Assembly: GCA_016190245.1 (NCBI GenBank)
Contig: JACPQY010000008.1
Location: 45,938 to 109,937, forward strand
DNA from: Nitrospirota bacterium
GTDB taxonomy: Bacteria; JACPQY01
Length of the DNA: 64,000 bases
Direction: 5' to 3'
Below are positions 46,967 to 58,680 of this stretch, one piece after another. Below the pieces are notes generated by a model. The model ran no database searches and was not told where the DNA came from. It saw only the letters and a program-made list of their open reading frames with translations. Position numbers and translations under genes: made by a program. The number at the start of each line of letters is the position of its first letter. Within the stretch, counting starts at the first letter, position 1.

Positions 46967-48106
46967 ATGAAGATCGCCGTCAACCTGAAAACAGTGGCTC
47001 GTGAAACGATGGGGATCGGCGTCTACGCCATGGAGTTGGCGCGACGGTTTCCCGCGCACGCCCCCTCCCACCAGTTCACCTATCTCGTCCGATCGGACGA
47101 TGTTTTCGAGCCCGCCGACCGGGATCATCGCGTCCGGTACCTGGCTGTTCCCCCGTCTCTCCGGAGCAAGCAAGGGCTCATTCTATGGGAGCACCTGGGG
47201 ATGCCACACCGTTTTGATCGGGACGGCGCCGATGTGGTGTTTCTCCCGGAGACGGTGGTGCCTCTCCGCCGTTTCGATGCGCCTGCCGTCGTCACCGTAC
47301 ACGATCTGGCCTATGCCGAAGCCGGAGAGACGATGACCGTGGCCAAGAGGCTCTACAAAGGGTGGTCGGCCCGCCACGCGGCCGGCCGGGCGGCCCATTT
47401 TGTTGCGGACTCGGACTACACCGCCGAAAGCATGAACCGGATACTGGGTGTGCCTCGATCGAAAACGACAACGGTGCCGCTGGGCGTGGACGGCGAGATC
47501 TTCCGACCGATACCCGATCCGGATCGCCGGCAGCCCCTCTGGAGCCGACTGGGGATCGGCACGGCGCCCTATCTACTGTACGCGGGAAACATCAATCCCA
47601 AGAAGAACATCGGCATGCTGATCGAGGCGTATCGCGAGGTCAGGCGCCAATGGGGGAACGATCTTCGGCTCGTATTTTCGGGCAAGATCGGATGGAAACT
47701 GAACGAGTTGTCGGCCTGGATAGCGGGCGAATGGCGGGACGGCATCCGGCACGTCGGATTCCTCTCGCGCGAGGATCTGGTGATGCTCTACTCCGAGGCC
47801 GCCATGCTGGTGTATCCGAGCAGCCACGAAGGATTCGGTCTTCCCCTTGCCGAGGCGATGGCCTGCGGGTGTCCGGTGGTCTCCACTCGGCGCACTTCAA
47901 TCCCGGAGGTGGTGGGCGATGCCGGAATCCTGGTCGAGGATATTTCCCCGGCCACGCTCGGCGACGCCATTCTTCGGCTTCTCCGAGAGCCGGGACTTCG
48001 AACCGATCTCGTCGGACGCGGATTGGAACGCGCCCGCCTCTTTTCCTGGGACCGCGCGGCACGGTTGACCTTGGAGGTGATCGAAACCATCGGCCGGCAG
48101 CGTTAG
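46967..48106 (+). CDS. Glycosyltransferase family 4 (GT-B, group 1)
   Basis: It has the EGFGLPLAEAMACGCPVVSTRRTSIPEVVGDAG motif (E-x7-E region). Confidence 0.8.
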   Translation: MKIAVNLKTVARETMGIGVYAMELARRFPAHAPSHQFTYLVRSDDVFEPADRDHRVRYLAVPPSLRSKQGLILWEHLGMPHRFDRDGADVVFLPETVVPLRRFDAPAVVTVHDLAYAEAGETMTVAKRLYKGWSARHAAGRAAHFVADSDYTAESMNRILGVPRSKTTTVPLGVDGEIFRPIPDPDRRQPLWSRLGIGTAPYLLYAGNINPKKNIGMLIEAYREVRRQWGNDLRLVFSGKIGWKLNELSAWIAGEWRDGIRHVGFLSREDLVMLYSEAAMLVYPSSHEGFGLPLAEAMACGCPVVSTRRTSIPEVVGDAGILVEDISPATLGDAILRLLREPGLRTDLVGRGLERARLFSWDRAARLTLEVIETIGRQR

Positions 48107-48159
48107 GCTCTTCATCCGTGTTTGGCAGAAGAATCATCGAAGGGTAATATCCTGCCAAC

Positions 48160-48645
48160 GTGTCTTCCGAGTCGCTTGAAGCCTGGCAGATCAACACTGA
48201 ACGGATGGCCGAGCAGATCCGGGAAGCTCGCGCCCCCTGCCGCACGGAGGAAGACCTCAAGATGAGGGTCGATCCGATCCTTCGGTCCGCATTTGAAAAG
48301 ATCGGCCTCGACGTCGAGAGCGTGAGATACGAACACGCCACCGGTTACCACGGCCGCATTGACGCATTGTACGGCTTTATGATCATCGAGTACGAAGCCC
48401 CGGGGAAGCTGAAGACTCGTCAAGGTTACAACGAGAGCATCGGCCAACTTCAGGCATACCTTGACGAGACGGCCTCCACGTTGGGGCAGGATCGGAAGGC
48501 AATCTTTTCGATCTTGGTGGGCGTCGAACGGAATCGAATGCTCGAATCCGTCGTCTTGCGCTGCGGCCTTATAGTATGGCAGGATCGCCGCATGGCTGAG
48601 CATCATGAGGAAGGCGGTTTGGACCGGAGCGTTGGGAGCCGATAA
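48160..48645 (+). CDS. Hypothetical protein (island gene 1)
   Basis: The 161-aa ORF has acceptable codon bias. Its stop overlaps the next start as TAATG. No motif is recognisable to me. Confidence 0.4.
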   Translation: MSSESLEAWQINTERMAEQIREARAPCRTEEDLKMRVDPILRSAFEKIGLDVESVRYEHATGYHGRIDALYGFMIIEYEAPGKLKTRQGYNESIGQLQAYLDETASTLGQDRKAIFSILVGVERNRMLESVVLRCGLIVWQDRRMAEHHEEGGLDRSVGSR

Positions 48646-49349
48646 TGCCGCCTCTTCGGCCCATGCCGCCTATTTCACTGCCTGTCGCCAAGCTGGCGCC
48701 TATTGGAACACATTGGAATGCTGGCGCGCTGACCCTTCCAAAATCATGGGGTGAGAGGGTGGGCGATCTGTGCGATCGGGTGGTAGGGGAGTGTCTTGCC
48801 AAGATGCTTGGCGACATCCCCGTGATGAAACCGGTCAAGTCGACAGCACTACTTCCTCCCGCGCCGGACTGCGTTGAAGTTGGACCCGCCCGCGTCATCG
48901 GTGGGATTCGGCCGCAGAACTTTGATGTGGCGTATCGTCCGGATGGTGTGCGATTCGCTTTTGACAGCAAGACGCTCAATACGAGGAAAAGCCTGTCGAA
49001 AAACTACCAGAACATGATAAACGATCTGGGTACCGAAGCAGCTACGGTGCATACGCGCTTTCCTTCCGCTATTGTCGCCTTTGTCGTGGCAGTGCCTGAA
49101 CCTTGTCTTTCGACTCACCGCAAGAACTTGACCACGGCATTGACCCGGCTCGCCGGTCGCAGGAGCAGTAGCGGGGATGTTCACAAGGCTGAGGCGATTT
49201 CACTCTTGGTTTGGAATCCGCACGATGGGTCCGCTGACAAGGATTGGCCGCCAAGAAGCTCTCCGCTGAGAATCGAGGAATTCTCCGCTCAGATTGAGCT
49301 GTGCTACATGGACCGTTTTGCCGGGTTGCCCCCTCACAACGTTGGTTGA
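48645..49349 (+). CDS. Hypothetical protein (island gene 2), a candidate restriction-endonuclease/specificity partner of the adjacent methyltransferase
   Basis: The 234-aa product has a weak PD...DxK-like string (YRPDGVRFAFDSK). It is translationally linked to genes 1 and 3. Confidence 0.35.
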   Translation: MPPLRPMPPISLPVAKLAPIGTHWNAGALTLPKSWGERVGDLCDRVVGECLAKMLGDIPVMKPVKSTALLPPAPDCVEVGPARVIGGIRPQNFDVAYRPDGVRFAFDSKTLNTRKSLSKNYQNMINDLGTEAATVHTRFPSAIVAFVVAVPEPCLSTHRKNLTTALTRLAGRRSSSGDVHKAEAISLLVWNPHDGSADKDWPPRSSPLRIEEFSAQIELCYMDRFAGLPPHNVG

Positions 49350-51144
49350 GCGGGACCACCATCCAGTAAAGAACGGCGCCAAGGTGCTGGCGTCCAGGAA
49401 GTTCAGCACGCCAAGGTACTCACGCAAGAAGTCCGTGGAGTACGCCCAGGGTGCTGGACCGGTGATCCCCCTTGCGATTGCGGAGGAGCAGCAGATCTCT
49501 CTCATTGAGGGCATAGGCAAAGCCCGGCAGGGTGGGGCTGTCCCATCAAAGATTCCGGGTCGCTATCATCGGAATGGTACAGAAGAAAAGATTCGCGGGG
49601 CGGTCTACACTCCGCCTCGCGTGGCGGCCTCACTGACTCGCTGGGCGGTTCGTTCACGCGTGGACAAGGTCTTGGATCCATCCTGTGGAGAAGGAGTCTT
49701 CCTCTCGGCGGCGCGGACTCGACTAGCCGACTTGGGAGCACGCAAGCCGGAATGCTTGGGGGTGGACATTGATTCAGAGGCGGCGGCTCAGTCCGGAGCC
49801 ATTTGTGCCGACTTTTTCCGTTGGATTGGGATCGCCTCGAAATTCGATGCTATCATCGGCAATCCGCCATTTGTGCGTTCGCATCTTTTCCCGGAGGATA
49901 GCCGGGCGTTGGCTTTCGATGAGATGGCGAAAATGGGCCTGCGCGGGTCGCGCCTCATGAGTACATGGGCGCCTTTTCTTGCTCTATGCTGCAAGACCCT
50001 TGGTGAACAGGGAAGGTTGGCCATGGTTATCCCTGAGGAGTTGCTTGCCGTCGGTTATGCTGAAGGATTGCGGAAGTATCTGCTCAACCGATTCCGGCGG
50101 GTGATTGTTTGTTTCCCTGCTGAAGGAATCTTTCCGGAAGTCCAGCAGGCCGTCATCCTGCTATTGTGTGATAACGATTCCAGCGGCAAGAGCGGATTAC
50201 TGACGATGGAGTATTCTTCGCTGGAGGAAGGAGATTTCGAGGCTGTGAATCCTGCGGCGCCATGGGAATGGAATGGGAAATGGACACATCTTTTCTTGTC
50301 CCCATGGGACAGACGCCGTGTTGTCGAATGGTGGCTGCAGTCGGATTGGCAGCCATTCTACTCTTATGGCCGGGTCGAGGTCGGTATCGTGACGGGTGAC
50401 AACAGCTTCTTCATCCTCAACCGAGAGGAAGCTCGGCGATTTGACGGGAAGCATCTGGTTCCGATTGTGACCAGCGCCAAAGATCTTCGCGGGATCAAGT
50501 TCGGCGCTGATGATTTCAAGAGAGTGCTCAGAGAAAGTCGTCCTGCCTTCCTGATCAATCTGGCAGAATCCAAGGGGAGATTGTCCGCATCAGAGCGTTC
50601 GTACTTGGAATTGGGAGAACGGGAGCAGATCCCTGAACGCTACAAATGCCGGGTCCGGGAGCCTTGGTACGCCGTGCCGAGCGTTTGGGCACCTGACGGC
50701 CTACTCCTGCGGCAGGCGGGGGAAATGCCGCGATTGGTGCACCTTACGAAGAAATGCACCGCAACGGACACTATACACAGAGTAACCTGGCGCTCACCTA
50801 AGTTGGGCCGACGTCATTCGGTAAGCTTCATGAACACCTGGACGCTCATGGCTGGGGAGTTGATGGGACGGAGCTACGGCGGCGGCGTATTGGAGTTGAT
50901 GCCAAGCGAGGCCAATCGGCTGCCCATGCCGGGACCGAGCCAAGCCCTCGACGAGGCGTTCGATGCGGTGGACGAGAGAGTGCGATCTCGCAACTTCCAC
51001 GATGCAGTGTCCATCGTTGACGACTTGGTTATGCCGTGTTGGATGTCGAAGGAAGATAGAAGCGCCGCCGGAGGGATACTTAGCAAACTCATTTCTCGTC
51101 GGAAGGTACGCAGCGCGGCACAGGTGGATGTTGTTGGCCATTGA
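49294..51144 (+). CDS. N6-adenine-specific DNA methyltransferase, gamma class (M.TaqI/Eco57I-like), with a C-terminal target-recognition region
   Basis: Motif X is VYTPPRVAASL. Motif I is VLDPSCGEGVFL. Motif IV is IIGNPPFVRS. The start is uncertain: ATG at 49294 overlaps the upstream gene by 56 nt, and TTG at 49342 is an alternative. Confidence 0.8.
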   Translation: MSCATWTVLPGCPLTTLVERDHHPVKNGAKVLASRKFSTPRYSRKKSVEYAQGAGPVIPLAIAEEQQISLIEGIGKARQGGAVPSKIPGRYHRNGTEEKIRGAVYTPPRVAASLTRWAVRSRVDKVLDPSCGEGVFLSAARTRLADLGARKPECLGVDIDSEAAAQSGAICADFFRWIGIASKFDAIIGNPPFVRSHLFPEDSRALAFDEMAKMGLRGSRLMSTWAPFLALCCKTLGEQGRLAMVIPEELLAVGYAEGLRKYLLNRFRRVIVCFPAEGIFPEVQQAVILLLCDNDSSGKSGLLTMEYSSLEEGDFEAVNPAAPWEWNGKWTHLFLSPWDRRRVVEWWLQSDWQPFYSYGRVEVGIVTGDNSFFILNREEARRFDGKHLVPIVTSAKDLRGIKFGADDFKRVLRESRPAFLINLAESKGRLSASERSYLELGEREQIPERYKCRVREPWYAVPSVWAPDGLLLRQAGEMPRLVHLTKKCTATDTIHRVTWRSPKLGRRHSVSFMNTWTLMAGELMGRSYGGGVLELMPSEANRLPMPGPSQALDEAFDAVDERVRSRNFHDAVSIVDDLVMPCWMSKEDRSAAGGILSKLISRRKVRSAAQVDVVGH

Positions 51145-51349
51145 GCGATGATCGAGCATACGAGGTTTGGCATCCGGGGACCTTGATGATCCGTTCACAT
51201 AGGTTCCCCCTCCGCCACCCGAAGTTCGATCCCCGACACCGCTCCCACATTCGCCTTTGCGAACTTTCGGAAAAAGCGCACGAGAAGGTGAAACGCGGGA
51301 CGACCATTGATGACATTGACGGGGAAATAGACGAAAATGTGAGGAAGCT

Positions 51350-52237
51350 GTGGAATATCGGGTCTTGAATCCCAAGGATGGCGACTACCCGCGGCGTCTG
51401 AGAGAGCGCCTGGGCAGGGAAGCCCCCACGCTGTACGCCCTCGGACCCCTCGAACACCTGTCGAGATGGACACTCGCCTTTCTGACAGCCGACCAGGAGC
51501 CTGGATTCGTAATCCGCGCTGCATGGGATATGTTCTTCCCGGTCTTGGAATACGAAATGAACGCCATCGGCCCATGGCAGTCCGTCAATGAGGGGGTCTT
51601 TCTGAGATCCGCCCTCGAAAAGCCGTGGATTTCGATGACGCTTTTCACAGCGAAGGGATTGGAGCGCGAAACGTACACAAGCTTTCTCGATGCCCGCCAT
51701 CCGGGGCGCTTTCACGATTTCCTCCAGCGGCCGGAGTACGAGCGTCGTGCTGCCGCGGGGGAACTCCTTTTGCTGTCGATTTCTCCTCCACGGCACGGCC
51801 GTCAGTCGCGCGCGGTCATCCTCGAACGTAACTGGATTGCGTGCCATCTGGCCGATGTCGTTTTCATCGGCGGGGCGGAAAAGATCACCAAGGTGTGGGA
51901 TGCCGAACGGCGGAAATACAACGAGAAACCCCAAAAGACGTTCGCACTGGCCCGACGCCTTGTGAAAACGGGCGTGCCTATTTTCACCGTGGATCACGAG
52001 GACAACAAGGAACTCCTCGCCCTGGGCGTTCCGGGGTACAATCCGAAGACGATCCGCCCGCTTCTTGAATCCCTTGGCGCCCGGAAAGGTCGTGCGCCGG
52101 AATTGCCGGTCTTGACGACCAACGACGAAGAAGTCCCGTCCAATGAATCTGCGTCCGCCTCCGTTCCAGCCAAGTCCCGCCCGGCGGAGCAACTCAAACT
52201 GCTCCATCTGTCCCCCAACCCCCGAAAGCCCGGTTGA
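51350..52237 (+). CDS. DprA/Smf-family (SLOG-fold) protein, divergent
   Basis: The N-terminal YPRRLRERLGREAPTLYALG matches the DprA motif YP.LL.EI.DPP.VLY..G. The segment ILERNWIACHLADVVFIGGAEK matches the DprA motif ERNRIIAGLSDATLVVEAAEKSG. The start is GTG at 51350 and is uncertain. Confidence 0.5.
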   Translation: MEYRVLNPKDGDYPRRLRERLGREAPTLYALGPLEHLSRWTLAFLTADQEPGFVIRAAWDMFFPVLEYEMNAIGPWQSVNEGVFLRSALEKPWISMTLFTAKGLERETYTSFLDARHPGRFHDFLQRPEYERRAAAGELLLLSISPPRHGRQSRAVILERNWIACHLADVVFIGGAEKITKVWDAERRKYNEKPQKTFALARRLVKTGVPIFTVDHEDNKELLALGVPGYNPKTIRPLLESLGARKGRAPELPVLTTNDEEVPSNESASASVPAKSRPAEQLKLLHLSPNPRKPG

Positions 52238-52992
52238 GTGTGAAAACGGTGGATGCCAACTCTCGTCAGGAACGGGCTGAAATCGAGGTTTTTGGTCAGT
52301 TCGTGCAGGCGGCAATGTTGCGTGTGGAACAGGGATCGATTCAGAAACGGAACCCGCCGGAACCGGACATCCTCTGCCACGTGGAGGGGGAGGGACCCGT
52401 AGCATTCGAACTTGTTGAACTCATCGACCGGGATTTTGCGCGCAAAATAAATACCGCCATTGATCTGAAAGGGCGATTGGAGGAATTATTCAATCAATTG
52501 CCGCAGAACGAACGTGACGAGATTTCTCACAGGTTCGGAAATGCGGTAGTTGAGGTCGTTCCGAGAAATGGGGCATCCTCCCGTCGGGTGGAGTCTGATC
52601 TGCCGAATGTGCTGCGCGCCTTGCAGACGGCTCCCTTCGGATTGGAGGACATGGTTTCAGCGACTGCATTGGGCCTTGAAGCGACTGAGATCAATCATCT
52701 GCTTGTTGCCCGTGGGGAATTGAATGGTCCGTGTTTCGACTTGGACACCACCCTTACTTGCAGCGACCCGACGGTCGAGAGAATTGCCGCGAAATTCAAG
52801 AAGAATTACAAGACTACCGCCCCGATCGAACTCTTGGCGTACTCGGAACTGCAACCCCCAGCCCCTGGGAACACTTGGAAGCCTTCACTTCTCGAGTATT
52901 GCCAGTCCAACTTGGGCCAGAGTCCCTTCCGTCGCATCTGGATTTTCTGCATAAGGTCAAGGGAAATACTGTTAACATTTCCGGAGACATAG
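52234..52992 (+). CDS. Hypothetical protein (island gene 5), lowest-GC gene in the window
   Basis: The 252-aa ORF starts at a TTG that overlaps the upstream stop as TTGA. No family is recognisable to me. Confidence 0.4.
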   Translation: MSVKTVDANSRQERAEIEVFGQFVQAAMLRVEQGSIQKRNPPEPDILCHVEGEGPVAFELVELIDRDFARKINTAIDLKGRLEELFNQLPQNERDEISHRFGNAVVEVVPRNGASSRRVESDLPNVLRALQTAPFGLEDMVSATALGLEATEINHLLVARGELNGPCFDLDTTLTCSDPTVERIAAKFKKNYKTTAPIELLAYSELQPPAPGNTWKPSLLEYCQSNLGQSPFRRIWIFCIRSREILLTFPET

Positions 52993-53203
52993 GGATTTGG
53001 TGAGGATCGTCCAGCGATCCTTCGCTCTACACATTTTCTTTCCCCTGACTGGCTCAGCTTTCCAATGCGTGGGTTCTCTTGCGAACCGGCTCCGAGAGCT
53101 TGATCGTACCCAAGCCGGGCAGCGATGGTTGCCTTACGAGTGGCAGCCCAGCCCTGCTGTTGACTGGCTACCCTCAACTCCTACGGCCTGAATCATCAAC
53201 TTG

Positions 53204-54709
53204 TCAGCCGCGGCCGAGGGTTTTGACGCTGCGGAGGAAATCGCGCGTCCAGGCCTTCGTGAGGAACGCGAGGGCGACAAACAACAGAAGCGAAGCCAGC
53301 GTGCCGGTGATGTTCAGAGAGATTTCCTTCTGACCGAGCGAGAACCAGAGCCCCGCAACCAGGGGGGCCCCCGCCAGCAGGATCTTCCCGATGCCGGCCG
53401 GCTCCAGGAGCCGGAGCGCGGAGACCTCGATCGCGCGCGCCACGAGGACCAGAGTCAAGACCGCCATCACTCCATAGGAGATCAGGCCTGCCGCTGCGGA
53501 ACCAGTCAACCCCCACAGCGGGATGAGGGCGATGTTGAGCGCCACGTTCACGAGCGAACCCACACCTATCGGAATTGAAGCGCCGAAGGGCCGGTTCGTC
53601 GCCAGCAGGATGTTCCCCGTGAGTTGCGCCACGCTGTGCAGGAGACATCCTGCGAGCAGAATTCGCAGGGCCGGCGTCGCCTGGCGGAAATCCTCGCCGA
53701 ACCATCCCATGATCATGTCGGCCGCCCCGATCCCGGCGAGCATGATGGGCCAGCCGAGGAGGACGAGATAGCGGTGGGTGGTGCGATACGTCTTGAGCAT
53801 CTGCTCGTTCTCCCCGCGGTGCCACAATCCAGAAAGAGAGGAGAAAAGCATCTGCGCGGGGAGGCGCGTGATCATGTCGAACACCTTGAAGACCGAGTAG
53901 GCGCTGGCGTAGTAGCCGAGCTGTTCGACGGTGAGGAAGAGAGGGATGATGAGGCGGTCCGCGTACTCGATCACGATTTCCGAGAGCTGCTGTGGCAGGG
54001 CGCGGGCGTTGTAGCCGATCACGGCGCGCGAGGAAGGACCCGGCCCGGGCGGCTCCGCCGTCCGCCGCCGGTATTCCCTGAGAACGAAAAGTCCACCGGC
54101 GAGGAACGCGCAGAGCGGAAAGAAGACCTTGTAGAGGGAAGCCGACTGGGCCGAGCGCCCGAACAGAGAGGGAAGGAGAAGCACGAATCCCAATGTGAGA
54201 TATTGCGCCACCGTCTCGGCGCGGAAAAAGAACTTCATCCGCTGAGTCGCGCGGAACCGGCATTGCGCGAACTGCCAACTGTGTTCCAGGAAGGCGGCGG
54301 CGAAGACGAGAGGGATCAGCGCCGTCCACAGGCCCCCCTGGCCATAGGCCCGGTCGAGAACAACTGCCGAGATCGGGATCACGACGGCCGCGGAGAGAGT
54401 CATCATCCAGATCGAGGTTCGATAGGTCTTCCAGAAGAGCGACCAGCCACGGGAGCTGTCCGGAGAGTGCGCGGTGAGTGCGTGCGCGAGGCCGGCCCCC
54501 CCGGTCAGCCGGGAGACGTAGGCGAGGAGGCCTGAGAAGAAGAGGAGGAGCGCCACCTGCCCCACGACCTCGGCGCCGAAGAGCCGGGCCAGCGCGATGT
54601 TGATTCCAACGACGGCGGGGAAGGGCACGATGCGCGCCAGCGTGTTGTAAACGACGGCGGAGACGAGCTGCCGGGACACAGCGGTGGGCGGCTGCACGTT
54701 CGAACTCAA
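53204..54709 (-). CDS. Polysaccharide biosynthesis protein / oligosaccharide flippase (Wzx-like, MOP superfamily)
   Basis: It has about 12-14 TM helices. I chose a TTG start at 54709, which is preceded by GAGGAG-N5 and overlaps the upstream GT4 stop as TTGA. The ORF-track start is 54799. Confidence 0.7.
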   Translation of the reverse strand: MSSNVQPPTAVSRQLVSAVVYNTLARIVPFPAVVGINIALARLFGAEVVGQVALLLFFSGLLAYVSRLTGGAGLAHALTAHSPDSSRGWSLFWKTYRTSIWMMTLSAAVVIPISAVVLDRAYGQGGLWTALIPLVFAAAFLEHSWQFAQCRFRATQRMKFFFRAETVAQYLTLGFVLLLPSLFGRSAQSASLYKVFFPLCAFLAGGLFVLREYRRRTAEPPGPGPSSRAVIGYNARALPQQLSEIVIEYADRLIIPLFLTVEQLGYYASAYSVFKVFDMITRLPAQMLFSSLSGLWHRGENEQMLKTYRTTHRYLVLLGWPIMLAGIGAADMIMGWFGEDFRQATPALRILLAGCLLHSVAQLTGNILLATNRPFGASIPIGVGSLVNVALNIALIPLWGLTGSAAAGLISYGVMAVLTLVLVARAIEVSALRLLEPAGIGKILLAGAPLVAGLWFSLGQKEISLNITGTLASLLLFVALAFLTKAWTRDFLRSVKTLGRG

Positions 54710-55833
54710 CGAATCTCCTCGTAGACGGCCAGTGTTTCGCGTGCGAACCGGTCGAGGGGGAACCGGCTGAGCGCGCGCTGTCGGCCGGCTCGGCCCCATC
54801 GGCGCGCCTCGTCCCGGTTCGACAGGATCCGGATGATCGCCGAAGCAAGGTGCTCGGGATGGTCGTGGGGCACGACGATGCCGCTCTTCTCGTGTTCGAC
54901 CACTTCAGGAAGACCGCCCGTATCGGAGACGACGACCGGAACTCCCTCCACCATCGCCTCGGCCACGGAGAGGCCGAACCCTTCGATGAATGCTCCGGAG
55001 GGGAGGCTGAATTGGACGAGGACGTCCGCGATGGCGTGGAACGAGCGCGCATCGACGGCATCGCCGCAGAAGCGGACCGCATCGTCCACCCCTTTCGCCC
55101 GGGCTTCCCACCTGAGCTCCTCCAGCGCATCCCCGGACCCCACCATCACGTACACCGCATCGGGCACGCGGCGCAGAACGTCCGGAAGGGCGTGGAGGAC
55201 CTCCGCCTGTCCTTTCCTCGGGTGCAGATGCGCGATGGTGAGGATGATCTTCTTCCCGAAGAGATCGAAGCGGGATCGGAGGTCGGACAGGTCTTCCGGG
55301 GGATGGTAATGGGGCGACGTATCAACGCCGTTGTAGATAACCGCCAGTTTGTCTTGAGGAAGGCCCCGATCTTCTGCCAGCGAGCGCGTGAACCGACTCA
55401 CGCAGATGATCCGGTTGGTCGCCAAGTAGGACGGCCGGAAGATCCGATCTCGCAGGTGACGACGACCCGCCACACACAGGTTCCGCCGGATCTCCGTCCC
55501 GTGAACGGTCATGATCTTCGGGATCCCCCCGCACTCCACCCGGCCGAGGGCCAGATGAGCCATCGAGCTTGTGGCGTGCACGACATCGGGCCGGACTCGG
55601 TCTACCGCTTCTTCAAGCGCCCCGCACCCTCTGAGATAGCGCCGGAGGTTCGAGCCCGTCGCGTCGAAGCGGTACAGGTGCAAGCCCGGCAGTCCGGGAT
55701 CCGATGGCGAGCCCGGGCATACCCCATGTACCTCGTGTCCCTGGCGGGCAAACTCGGCACCGAGGCTTGTCGTATACGTCGCGATGCCTCCAAGCTTTGG
55801 CGGGAAATCGTAGGAGAAGAGAAGGATTTTCAT
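54706..55833 (-). CDS. Glycosyltransferase family 4
   Basis: The N-terminal MKILLFSYDFPPKLGGIATYT and the C-terminal EGFGLSVAEAMVEGVPVVVSDTGGLPEVV motifs are conserved. Confidence 0.8.
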   Translation of the reverse strand: MKILLFSYDFPPKLGGIATYTTSLGAEFARQGHEVHGVCPGSPSDPGLPGLHLYRFDATGSNLRRYLRGCGALEEAVDRVRPDVVHATSSMAHLALGRVECGGIPKIMTVHGTEIRRNLCVAGRRHLRDRIFRPSYLATNRIICVSRFTRSLAEDRGLPQDKLAVIYNGVDTSPHYHPPEDLSDLRSRFDLFGKKIILTIAHLHPRKGQAEVLHALPDVLRRVPDAVYVMVGSGDALEELRWEARAKGVDDAVRFCGDAVDARSFHAIADVLVQFSLPSGAFIEGFGLSVAEAMVEGVPVVVSDTGGLPEVVEHEKSGIVVPHDHPEHLASAIIRILSNRDEARRWGRAGRQRALSRFPLDRFARETLAVYEEIR

Positions 55834-55879
55834 CGAAGGCGTTCACCCCCACCCTGGTTCTCGGAACTCCTCACCCTGG

Positions 55880-55903
55880 CCCTCTCCTCGTTGAGGAGAG
55901 GGG
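55880..55903. other. Perfect 10-bp stem / 4-nt loop hairpin (CCCTCTCCTC gttg GAGGAGAGGG) in the GT4-flippase intergenic region, followed by a G-rich tract (55990-56040)
   Basis: I read it directly from the sequence. Confidence 0.4.
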
Positions 55904-56044
55904 AACTCCCTCTCCCTAACACGTGGACAAGGAGTCCAGGTGCCACGAAAGGAAAGCAGTCCGCCGCGGCGGAGACGGCCTGCGAATAGCGTGGCAGGGA
56001 GAGGGGTGGGGTGAGGGTTGGCGCGGATGGGGGGGGCTGAGCGG

Positions 56045-57514
56045 CTAGCATTCGGGCCTCAGCAGTTTCTTTCGCCACAGCCATCCGGCGTAGGCGGCCA
56101 CGAACAGGGTGGAGAGGCCGAGCACCTCGGCCGGGCCGGTGCCGGGGAGAAGCGCGGCGGCTCCCCAGGTGCCTGCCCCGAGCGCGAGGCCGGCGGCGAG
56201 AACCCGCGCCTGTCGCCGACTGAACCCGTGCACGCCGATTCGCCGCCAGGTCATCCAGGCCTGGGGCACTTTGGATAGAGCGTTCCCCCCCCCCGCAAGG
56301 GCCCCCGCCGCCCAAGTCCCCGCCACTGGGATGCACAACGGGCCGAGCGCCGCCACCATGGCGATGGGAATGCTATTGAACAGCGTGTAGGCGAAGGGGC
56401 GTCCGGTCGCGGCGAGGACCTCACCCGTCGGACCCGCCGCGAGATTCAGGAAGCTGCCGGCGGACAGGAGGACCAGCGCGGTGTAGCCTACTTTTCCGTC
56501 CATCCCGAACAGCTCGATCAACCACGCGCCGAAAATGACATAGAGGACAAGTGCCGGCAGCGCCCCAGCGGTGCCCCAGAGCGTGGAGAGACGGGTCGAA
56601 CGGCGCAGGCGATCCAAGTCGCCCGACGAGGATGCTTCGGCCATCAGCGGCGTGACGATGGGCGTGAAAGCGGCGCGGATCTTGGCCAGCAAGTAGGCCA
56701 ACTCCGTCGCGAGATTGTAGGCGGCCACCTGCGCAACAGGGAGATAACGGCCCACCAGGAAAATGTCAACACGCCTCGCCAGGAGCGCGGAGACATTTAC
56801 CCCCCCGAGGGCCACGGCGAAGCGGAGGGTTTCCCCGTCGAGGCAGCCCCCCCCCCGGAGGGAAAGCGTGCGGAGGCTGAAGTGTCGCGCGAAAAACGCG
56901 AGGCCGACCAGGAGAACGACGGCCTCGGCCGCGAGGTGCGCGGCGTAAGGACCGGCCGAGGCCCAGGGGGCCGAGCCGGCGAGCCCCAGTACGGCCAGTG
57001 AGACGATCAGCATGACGACCGGTTCGAGAAACTCAATCCCGATCACGAAGTAGGCCATGATCTTCAGCCCGCGCGTGGCGGCGTAGAGCATCCGGGCCGT
57101 CACGGCCGGCGGCAGGATCACCGCCATCCAGCGCAGCCCCGCGGCGACCTCCGGCTTGCGGAAAAACGAATCCGCGATGAAGGGCGCGGAAACGAACAGC
57201 GCCGCGCCCAGCACGAGGCTCGCGATCAGCGGAAGACCGAGGGCCGTCCTCAGGCAGGCCCTTTCCTGCTCCGGATCCCTTCCGCGGTACCGCGGGATGA
57301 AGTTCCACAGGGCATTGTCGAATCCCGCAAGGCATACGAAAAGAAGGAAATCGAAAACGGCGAAGCTGAGGGTGTAGTGGGCATACACCGTCGTGCCGTA
57401 GAGAGAGGCCACCACCCAGAGGAATCCCACGCGCGTGCACCGGAGGAGGATGCCGAAGAGATTGGTGGCCGACCCCTGCGCCAGGATGCGGGCGTCGGCC
57501 GCGGGGGGGCTCAC
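56045..57514 (-). CDS. Polytopic membrane protein, MOP-type flippase / polysaccharide biosynthesis protein (second copy)
   Basis: It is 489 aa with about 12 TM helices. It lies in the polysaccharide locus and overlaps the next GT4 gene by 4 nt. Confidence 0.55.
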   Translation of the reverse strand: MSPPAADARILAQGSATNLFGILLRCTRVGFLWVVASLYGTTVYAHYTLSFAVFDFLLFVCLAGFDNALWNFIPRYRGRDPEQERACLRTALGLPLIASLVLGAALFVSAPFIADSFFRKPEVAAGLRWMAVILPPAVTARMLYAATRGLKIMAYFVIGIEFLEPVVMLIVSLAVLGLAGSAPWASAGPYAAHLAAEAVVLLVGLAFFARHFSLRTLSLRGGGCLDGETLRFAVALGGVNVSALLARRVDIFLVGRYLPVAQVAAYNLATELAYLLAKIRAAFTPIVTPLMAEASSSGDLDRLRRSTRLSTLWGTAGALPALVLYVIFGAWLIELFGMDGKVGYTALVLLSAGSFLNLAAGPTGEVLAATGRPFAYTLFNSIPIAMVAALGPLCIPVAGTWAAGALAGGGNALSKVPQAWMTWRRIGVHGFSRRQARVLAAGLALGAGTWGAAALLPGTGPAEVLGLSTLFVAAYAGWLWRKKLLRPEC

Positions 57515-58680
57515 GCGGCCGGGGCGGATTCGAGTACGTCGAGAACGACCCGCTCCACCTGACGCGCGATGGTGGGCGCCGCGAAGCGCCGTCGCACCGT
57601 TTCCCGCCCCGCCCGGGCGAGGCGTTGGCGCAGGGTGGGGTCATCGAGCAGTGCGCACACGGCCTCGGCGATCTTCTCGGGGTTCGCCGGGGGGACGAGG
57701 AGCCCGTTCTCACCGTCGGTCACGATTTCCGGGATTCCTCCCACGCGCGTGGCCACCACCGGCACCCCCGCGGCCATGGCCTCGATCAGCACCCGCCCGA
57801 AGGGCTCCTGTTCCGAGGGCACGACCGCCACGGCGGTTCTACTGAGGTAGGGCCCGATGTCCGGTACCGCGCCGATGAACCTCACGGCAGGTCCGAGACT
57901 GAGTTCGGCTGCGCGATGCTGAAGGCGGCGGCGGTAATCGCCGGGGTCTCCCACCGGTGCGTCGCCCACGATGAACACCCGTGCCTCGGGGTGACGGCGC
58001 AGGATGTGCGGCGCCGCCTCCACCAGATGGAGCGCGCCCTTGCGCGGGATCAGGTTGCCGAAGTATGCGACCGCGGGTGCCTCCTTGGAGAACCCGTGTG
58101 AGATTCGCAGTCCACCTCCTCGCCGGCCAGTCCGTTCCGCGGGCAGGTCCACGCCGTTGTAAATCACGAGGGTTTTGCCGGGAACGACCCGCGAGTAGGG
58201 TTCGGCGGATGCCTCGGAGTTGCACACGACGCAGCGGACCCACGGGGACCGGGCGAGGCCGGGATAGAAGGCCGCACCCAGGGGCGAGTCGTGAATATTG
58301 CGGCAGTGGAAGACGACGGGACGGCCTGCGATCGCGCCGGCGACCCAGCCGATCGGTTTCGTGAGCATGTTGTTGCAGTAGATGAGATCGATGCCCTCGG
58401 CGCGGGCGAGCCGGGCGGCCCCGATGGCGGCGCGGCCCAGCCCCGCGAGGCGCGCGGGTGCAGCGGAGTCCGCCGGGAGCCGTTCAGGCATGCCCGGCAG
58501 AATCACGTAACGAATCCCGAGTTTCTCGAAGGAGTCGGCGAAGATGCCGGGGGTCGGAACGCCGACGACGGCTTCGAAGCGCCACCCGTCCAAGTGTTCC
58601 AGCAGCCGCAGGAGACTCCAGCCTGCCCCTCCCCCGCGAACGCAGGTGGAGAGGAAGAGGATGCGATGACGCCTGGCCAT
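57511..58680 (-). CDS. Glycosyltransferase family 4
   Basis: The EQEPFGRVLIEAMAAGVPVVATRVGGIPEIV motif is conserved. Confidence 0.8.
   Translation of the reverse strand: MARRHRILFLSTCVRGGGAGWSLLRLLEHLDGWRFEAVVGVPTPGIFADSFEKLGIRYVILPGMPERLPADSAAPARLAGLGRAAIGAARLARAEGIDLIYCNNMLTKPIGWVAGAIAGRPVVFHCRNIHDSPLGAAFYPGLARSPWVRCVVCNSEASAEPYSRVVPGKTLVIYNGVDLPAERTGRRGGGLRISHGFSKEAPAVAYFGNLIPRKGALHLVEAAPHILRRHPEARVFIVGDAPVGDPGDYRRRLQHRAAELSLGPAVRFIGAVPDIGPYLSRTAVAVVPSEQEPFGRVLIEAMAAGVPVVATRVGGIPEIVTDGENGLLVPPANPEKIAEAVCALLDDPTLRQRLARAGRETVRRRFAAPTIARQVERVVLDVLESAPAA

Follow-up and report, generated by a model that had tools for sequence, protein, structure and literature searches.

PsyrA is a DprA-like antitoxin. 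ShosA, which is also DprA-like, neutralises a DNA-damaging partner through binding of single-stranded DNA (ssDNA) and through RecA (PMC12961424), and DprA of Helicobacter pylori (HpDprA) acts by direct contact to inhibit type II restriction endonucleases and to stimulate methyltransferases (PMC3597690). A gene for another DprA-like protein, designated here open reading frame (ORF) A, was analysed in a stretch of 64,000 nucleotides from contig JACPQY010000008.1 of a Nitrospirota bacterium; this whole stretch is referred to below as the window. ORF A occupies positions 51350-52237 of the forward (+) strand, starts with GTG and encodes 295 residues, and it is directly followed by ORF B (52234-52992, +; 252 residues when read from a TTG start). 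An earlier reading of the sequence alone had taken the two genes for a nucleotide-sensing defence pair. It was found here that the conserved neighbour of A is not B but a gene for an Eco57I-class type IIG restriction-modification (RM) enzyme of approximately 1100 residues. A is very probably an RM-associated accessory protein with a DprA fold, and B an unrelated neighbour.

The first four homologs of A that were looked up each lay directly after a gene for an N6_Mtase/Eco57I protein of 1091-1108 residues, with an overlap of 13-19 nucleotides. PDLC03630, the type IIG model of PADLOC, matched these upstream genes along their full length (E 1e-253 to 1e-273). When species-representative genomes were scanned, A was found at 26 loci, in Thermodesulfobacteriota/Syntrophaceae, Verrucomicrobiota, Planctomycetota, Desantisbacteria, Chitinispirillaceae and other hosts, and wherever at least 1 kb of upstream DNA was available, the IIG gene ended at the start of A. 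A further 80 loci came from a scan of metagenomes; at least 300 nucleotides of upstream DNA were available in 68 of them, and in 61 of these 68 the IIG gene preceded A. The overlap between the two genes was 19 nucleotides in most homologous loci. Across more than 100 loci, only RM or DNA-modification genes were found upstream of A, the downstream genes were variable, and no signal-generating enzyme (cyclase or TIR synthase) was conserved beside A. The co-location with an RM unit, which had been pointed out in the sequence-only reading, proved to be stronger than was claimed there. No description of a DprA-like gene tied to type IIG or other RM genes was found in the searchable literature, which did not cover the SLOG survey (Burroughs 2015), and the RM-linked DprA-like family is apparently undescribed. 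The cassette of IIG and A was also seen within larger defence islands containing HNH, Mrr_N, Peptidase_M78, MmeI-type and type I RM genes (loci L005-L008), and in locus L001 it lay downstream of a CAP12-PCTIR TIR-domain gene.

In the seven metagenome loci that did not follow this arrangement, A was preceded by other genes. In four of them (L051-53 and L108), A follows an N6_N4 methylase and a BglII-like endonuclease, and only residues 1-49 of the IIG protein remain. In the other three, A follows an N6_N4 methylase with an EcoO109I-like endonuclease (L120), a D12 (Dam-like) methylase (L122) or an SspD/DndC/BrxP-like PAPS-reductase (L100). In seven other loci, only IIG residues 1-59 and 1068-1100 remain ahead of an intact A, and elsewhere the RM gene is frameshifted, has an internal deletion or is interrupted by IS21. 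One Thermodesulfobacteriota/Syntrophaceae slot, with two peptidase M16 genes on one side and rubrerythrin on the other, was found to hold IIG and A, a BglII-type RM system and A, or a remnant and A. The ratio of nonsynonymous to synonymous substitution (dN/dS) for A was 0.054 between two BglII-type loci (proportions of nonsynonymous and synonymous differences, pN 0.109 and pS 0.71) and 0.05-0.10 among the RM-deleted loci (pS 0.20-0.72). A therefore remains intact and under strong purifying selection where the RM slot has been swapped or deleted. No locus was found in which A was broken beside an intact RM gene, but this rests on small numbers, and as a target for mutation the RM gene is four times as large. 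As a separate observation, the M16/rubrerythrin slot (L004, L052, L081 and L097) has the appearance of a variable RM bay beside a constant A gene, with extra HEPN-like and HNH genes downstream of A in L097. In L046 (446-5896), an IS21-family element (rve and IstB) splits the IIG gene upstream of the A homolog; RM is inactivated here in yet another way, and A is left in place.

The contiguous nuclease, methylase and target-recognition-domain polypeptide of a type IIG enzyme, with a catalytic D...ExK, is not present in the window, where only the two ends of the protein, residues ~1-122 and ~1041-1091, are still encoded. The N-terminal relic, with a PD-(D/E)xK nuclease domain, lies at 48160-48645 (+), in an ORF of 161 codons that is still open. 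Searches by tblastn with four intact IIG proteins matched 48175-48525 at 45-49% identity, and PADLOC assigned the relic to REase_MTase_IIG (PDLC03630, E 7.7e-12). The catalytic EYK of all homologs is changed to EYE in this relic, and its similarity to intact IIG proteins stops after G121-V122 (alignment A3). The C-terminal relic, comprising approximately the last 50 codons (51207-51368, +), was detected by tblastn at 51207-51359 in frame 3, which is not the frame of the N-terminal piece, with 38-50% identity to IIG residues ~1041-1106. Its stop codon lies 19 nucleotides inside A, as in intact loci (alignment A4).

Two further genes lie between these relics. The first (48645-49349, +) encodes a candidate restriction endonuclease of 234 residues, assigned from its family and context. 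An FD..x12..DSK motif was read from its translation, and its PADLOC REase_II match was weak (E 0.039). This protein had 2081 matches, the best 120 of which showed 56-100% identity, and the genes of two of its homologs (P0324 and P0296) immediately precede one for an M.Eco57I_C methyltransferase, while A and B are both absent from the surroundings. The second gene (49294-51144, +; 616 residues) encodes an M.Eco57I-like gamma-class N6-adenine DNA methyltransferase, as judged by matches to Pfam (PF22837, 6e-28; PF07669, 1.5e-12; PF02384, 2.7e-11) and to PADLOC (MTase_II PDLC03267, E 1.7e-121, full model length). Its true start is probably located about 40 codons past the first TTG; the homologous partners have approximately 575 residues. 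Because relics of the IIG gene flank these two genes and because the pair is self-contained elsewhere, the comparison shows that an independent type II endonuclease-methyltransferase pair has taken the place of the middle ~900 IIG codons. The A gene of the window is an orphan beside a dead IIG partner and a newly inserted RM pair. It was also considered whether the ORFs of 161, 234 and 616 codons were a single frameshifted type IIG gene. This was rejected because the last two form a conserved independent pair elsewhere and homology to the IIG clade is confined to the two ends. The 161-codon ORF and the inserted endonuclease gene share a single base (48645), at the stop of the former and the start of the latter.

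The near-universal adjacency of the IIG gene and A and their overlap suggest translational coupling, and A could accordingly be required by the type IIG enzyme as a subunit or as a specificity factor, recruiting it, for example, to ssDNA or to replicating phage DNA. The A gene of the window, whose IIG partner has been destroyed, would then be a functionless orphan. However, A is full length and retains the low dN/dS given above where IIG is deleted or replaced by unrelated RM genes. Moreover, the A protein of the window keeps every residue that is invariant in the family (15 positions), together with 21 near-invariant positions (alignment A1), and more distantly related type IIG enzymes of plasmids (~30% identity), beside which no A-like gene was found, work without one. 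An obligate role in the IIG enzyme is therefore unlikely.

The window A protein gave no Pfam match at E<=1, and searches of NCBIfam and PHROGs were likewise empty. Its sole PADLOC match was a weak one to the antitoxin PsyrA (residues 3-44, E 8e-5); PADLOC 2.0 contains no model for A and none for B. A word-indexed search of 5.8 billion proteins found 25 relatives of A, with a patchy distribution over at least six phyla; none was found in plasmid records and none among viral contigs. When scanned singly, 12 of the 25 family members matched PF02481 (best E 6.5e-10), and relatives at 41-47% identity to A carry this domain. The A-family profile matched the DprA sequences of the Protein Data Bank (PDB) at E 0.007 only. 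An AlphaFold model of A was built on the family alignment, and it had a predicted local distance difference test score (pLDDT) of 88, with residues 1-245 mostly above 90. Foldseek searches of the PDB with this model matched DprA (3uqz, 3maj, 4ljk and 5mll; E 9e-10 to 3e-7) and the DprA-like antitoxin ShosA (8zva; E 2e-9), and further matches were to YpsA and to LOG/MoCo-carrier SLOG folds. The model, its Foldseek matches and the PF02481 matches of the relatives confirmed A as a divergent protein of the DprA/SLOG fold, in which a Rossmann fold over residues 1-245 is followed by a disordered tail, encoded by an intact gene. In this respect, the sequence-only reading, which had described A as a divergent, island-borne SLOG-fold protein, was correct.

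The same reading had noted that A keeps the N-terminal motif and the C-terminal strand of DprA without the central region, and this agrees with the PsyrA match, the model and alignment A1. The N-terminal DprA start YP..L....P.LY..G and the C-terminal strands are present in A. In the window, the place of the central DprA signature, the consensus of which we take to be SG.A.GID..AH..AL, is occupied by IGPWQSVNEGVFLRSAL, and a family-specific WQSVNEGV..R.AL substitutes for this signature throughout alignment A1. At the positions of GSR and SG.A.GID, the A family has the consensus ADxxPG and WQSVNEGV, and both signatures are missing. The tripeptide T-A-D48 of A would correspond to the arginine loop of the DprA GSR, with the register inferred from secondary structure and strand order. 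In a hidden Markov model alignment, ARNR of DprA pairs with ERNW of A (R160-N161-W162), and the equivalence to R143 of HpDprA depends on the chain numbering. Arginines of DprA have roles in ssDNA binding, R52 of HpDprA being the one in GSR (PMC12961424). No SAM domain and no C-terminal winged-helix (DML1) domain was present in the A model. The core of A is mildly basic (median isoelectric point 8.8), which is compatible with DNA binding and is not decisive. The clade of the window A protein contains an insertion of ~17 residues that is modelled as a beta-hairpin (strands 179-184 and 189-194; columns ~190-206 of alignment A1). This insertion sits at the SGS loop of DprA, and the PF02481-positive clade does not have it.

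Beyond residue ~245, A is disordered in the model (pLDDT below 60 in the motif region) and unconserved in the alignment, save for a Q that is invariant and, three residues on, an L that is nearly so, which are Q281 and L284 in the window. The forms found in the family include QLDLF, QLSLF, QLELF, QGKLF, QGKLNF, QEKFNF, QTELNF and QMSLL, and that of the window is QLKLL (residues 281-285, codons at 52190-52204, +), a beta-clamp-binding-like motif recognised by family conservation. The consensus for binding to the sliding clamp is QphixLF or QphixLxL, with QVELEF in Pol III alpha, and positions 1, 4 and 5 weigh most (bioRxiv 10.64898/2026.05.27.728225). A loose motif, defined as Qxx[LMF][FLW] or Qxx[LMF]x[FL] within the last 55 residues, was found in 37 of the 41 full-length A-family tails and in 7% of shuffled tails. 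A strict motif was found in 15 of the 41 sequences and in 1.1% of the shuffles. The tail motif of the A family conforms to the bacterial sliding-clamp-binding consensus QphixLF or QphixLx[LF], and clamp binding by A is putative. No DprA-family or RM-associated protein with a clamp motif was found in the searchable literature.

Since the structural matches of A extend to YpsA, LOG and MoCo-carrier proteins, A might also be a ligand-sensing SLOG protein that binds a small nucleotide and serves as an allosteric on/off switch of neighbouring restriction enzymes. The highly conserved family-specific set of residues in the pocket region (W76, S78, E81, R86 and D48), which replaces the DNA-binding signature of DprA, would fit such a role. 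However, the best structural matches are by far the DNA-binding proteins DprA and ShosA, neither a cyclase nor a synthase is linked to A in any of the more than 100 loci, and the clamp-type tail points to action on DNA. A ligand-sensing switch is thus quite improbable.

The explanation that is preferred here is that A is a DNA-binding genome-protection factor that would travel with RM systems instead of belonging obligately to a single enzyme. DNA would be bound by the DprA-type Rossmann domain, and the tail would tether the protein to beta-clamps remaining on newly replicated DNA. Tethered in this way, A could limit the self-restriction of sites that are not yet methylated, stimulate methylation and/or pass broken ends to RecA. 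Such generic protection would explain why A remains useful after the RM module has been exchanged or lost. Taken as a whole, that is, as an RM-associated accessory with an unrelated B and with protection by a clamp-tethered protein, this explanation is slightly favoured on balance; its most specific part, the clamp-tethered mechanism, is a tentative, rather doubtful proposal. HpDprA, ShosA and PsyrA serve as precedents for the protective role, with ShosA as the functional model. PCNA-coupled maintenance methylation is known for DNMT1 and PCNA, and a bacterial counterpart was considered for A. The A proteins would in that case be clamp-tethered adaptors linking RM to the replication fork, which would shield unmethylated sites or recruit or stimulate the methyltransferase; this is an unlikely variant.

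Several points weigh against a genome-protection role of this kind. The tail motif is a short pattern, the variant in the window, QLKLL, is a weaker one, and the motif could dock the RM enzyme, RecA or another partner instead of the clamp. The ssDNA-binding signature of DprA is largely replaced in A, with only R-N of RNR kept, and DprA-style ssDNA binding may not be retained in the predicted fold. The persistence of A after RM loss speaks against an RM-specific role and equally fits any beneficial function in DNA metabolism. Some of the frameshifted RM genes come from long-read metagenome-assembled genomes and are possible assembly errors. Finally, the shared breakpoints at IIG residues 59 and 1068 might in principle have arisen repeatedly, or have been spread by recombination, and need not be ancestral; in that case, the inference of selection on A after RM loss would be weaker.

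ORF B was studied with respect to its junction with A, its composition and its family. The sequence-only reading had described a translational coupling of A and B through TTGA, and this junction does exist at 52234-52237, where the TTG start of B would overlap the TGA stop of A. The start of B is ambiguous, however: a protein identical to B (P0026) starts at GTG 52249 in public gene calls (247 residues), and the N-termini of B homologs are compatible with either start, TTG 52234 or GTG 52249. Therefore, the overlap of 4 nucleotides is a possibility; the alternative, a gap of 11 nucleotides, is compact as well. Both genes belong to a compact run of ORFs on the forward strand (48160-52992) within a lower-GC stretch of ~5 kb. 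The island noted earlier is real, since positions 48110-53200 have a GC content of 0.569 and the window as a whole has one of 0.651, and B does have the lowest value, 0.531; only 0.08% of the 759-nucleotide stretches of the window are equally low or lower. The region 48160-52992 is best explained as a small operon that was acquired horizontally and derives from a cassette of two genes, IIG and a DprA-like gene, which has since decayed. No tRNA gene was found in the 40-60 kb part of the window, no meaningful direct or inverted repeats flank the island, no integrase marks an insertion, and promoter-like and terminator-like sites did not exceed the shuffled expectation.

B belongs to a large uncharacterised family of solo proteins of ~245 residues with a PD-(D/E)xK-like core. 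This family comprised 1772 clusters at 50% identity (E<=1e-3), 490 of which were at E<=1e-30, and it is larger than the A family (25 proteins in the word-indexed search) by about two orders of magnitude. The conserved positions are E16 in helix 1, PPEPD45 before a strand and AFE59LVE62 in the next strand. The layout of these residues resembles the PD-(D/E)xK core, the canonical strand lysine is absent, and an extra C-terminal alpha/beta domain is present. B had no match in Pfam, NCBIfam, PHROGs or PADLOC, 52 members of its family gave single sub-threshold matches only against Pfam, and the B profile gave chance matches only against PDB sequences. The use of PADLOC and Foldseek had been suggested in the sequence-only reading; both searches linked A to DprA-like proteins, PADLOC weakly through PsyrA and Foldseek through DprA and ShosA, whereas PADLOC gave nothing for B and Foldseek gave nothing for it below E 0.1 against the PDB. 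B family members were found in an island with integrase and Prim-Pol genes, beside IS1595 and type ISP debris, beside a PLD-nuclease gene and beside a PIN_12 gene, and two members lay on viral contigs. In a second family, of ~150-residue proteins (P0062, P0070 and P0074-P0138), the similarity to B is restricted to its first ~60 residues (PPEPD...AFELVE), where the identity is 45-60%. Because this family shares the N-terminal region only, the comparison suggests that the putative nuclease core of B is a mobile module with differing C-terminal halves. With rather low confidence, B may be regarded as a nuclease-type gene that stands alone and is typical of mobile and defence islands, and it would be co-transcribed with A in the window by accident of insertion.

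In the two-gene conflict system proposed earlier, A would sense a nucleotide-derived signal through its SLOG domain and B would be the effector. The tight junction, with either start of B, the position of both genes within the low-GC island, the SLOG-superfamily fold of A and the nuclease-like core of B are in line with this proposal. However, homologs of B were found within 4-6 kb of A in 0 of 116 A loci, and homologs of A were found near B in 0 of 8 B loci. The neighbours of B differ each time, and neither a signal generator nor a dedicated effector is linked to A in its more than 100 loci, where the RM gene is the conserved neighbour. According to hhalign, the A-family and B-family profiles are unrelated. 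The pairing of A and B is unique to this window and was absent from other defence islands, an outcome that the sequence-only reading had itself named as counting against the pair. Such a conflict system is very improbable; A may modulate B in this one genome.

It is hardly credible that A is the housekeeping DprA of the organism, a mediator of competence or recombination, since, in spite of its DprA fold and of the stable chromosomal A gene under purifying selection in the Thermodesulfobacteriota/Syntrophaceae slot, the window A protein falls below the PF02481 thresholds of Pfam, does not have the GSR and GxxxGID signatures or the SAM and C-terminal winged-helix domains, lies in a low-GC island and belongs to a very small, patchily distributed family that is always encoded beside RM genes or their remnants, so that its assignment as an island-borne gene is supported.

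Some other features of the region were also recorded. The flanks (46967-48106 and 53204-58680) contain glycosyltransferase-like and flippase-like ORFs, judged from their translations only, and the low-GC island (48110-53200) was apparently inserted into a high-GC cluster of polysaccharide-biosynthesis genes. On the reverse strand, an open frame of 438 codons (51089-52405, -) spans all of A; the high GC content most likely accounts for it.

The A family crosses phyla as the second gene of a IIG cassette and outlives its partner. If A protects or repairs host DNA, a protein-level safeguard would be added to the known means by which RM autoimmunity is avoided, and a testable link between RM and the replisome would be provided. 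If the A proteins are indeed clamp adaptors, this would explain how hosts survive single-polypeptide R-M fusions, for which there is no transcriptional timing of R versus M. For annotation, it should be borne in mind that a tight operon junction in a defence island does not amount to a functional pair.

For B, no significant sequence or Foldseek match was found to the PD-(D/E)xK proteins PA4535/DUF1780 (1Y0K) and XisH (2OKF) or to CdiA-CT nucleases, and B differs from them in the missing lysine of the strand motif and in the additional C-terminal alpha/beta domain. Full-length Eco57I-class type IIG enzymes (PDLC03630) are the conserved upstream partners of A, and the window keeps the two ends of one; described enzymes of this type act alone, and the copy in the window has been destroyed by the change of K to E and by the replacement of ~900 codons. 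A resembles DprA/Smf proteins (PF02481; 3UQZ and 4LJK) in its predicted Rossmann-type fold over ~245 residues (Foldseek E 1e-9, template modelling score to the target at most 0.74), in the YP..L....P.LY..G start and the RN of RNR, and in the PF02481 scores of its relatives. In contrast to DprA/Smf, A shows only ~15% identity, has GSR and GxxxGID replaced, contains neither a SAM nor a DML1/winged-helix domain, has a disordered clamp-type tail, and belongs to a tiny, patchy family with RM rather than housekeeping synteny.

With ShosA of ShosTA (8ZVA) and with PsyrA/RqlI of PsyrTA, A shares a DprA fold encoded beside a potentially genotoxic partner. That partner is a phosphoribosyltransferase or a RecQ-like helicase in these systems and an RM enzyme in the case of A, which moreover does not have the SAM domain of ShosA and apparently not its first ssDNA-binding arginine. 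Unlike what would be expected of a dedicated antitoxin, A persists after loss of its partner. The peptide ending its disordered tail is of the Q-x-x-L-F or Q-x-x-L-x-F type that is found in clamp-binding proteins such as Pol IV, Hda, MutS and Pol III alpha, with clamp binding by A being putative. HpDprA differs from A in being a housekeeping competence protein that is not encoded with RM genes and for which no clamp motif has been reported; nevertheless, it provides the closest experimental precedent for a functional link between DprA and RM (Dwivedi et al. 2013, PMC3597690).

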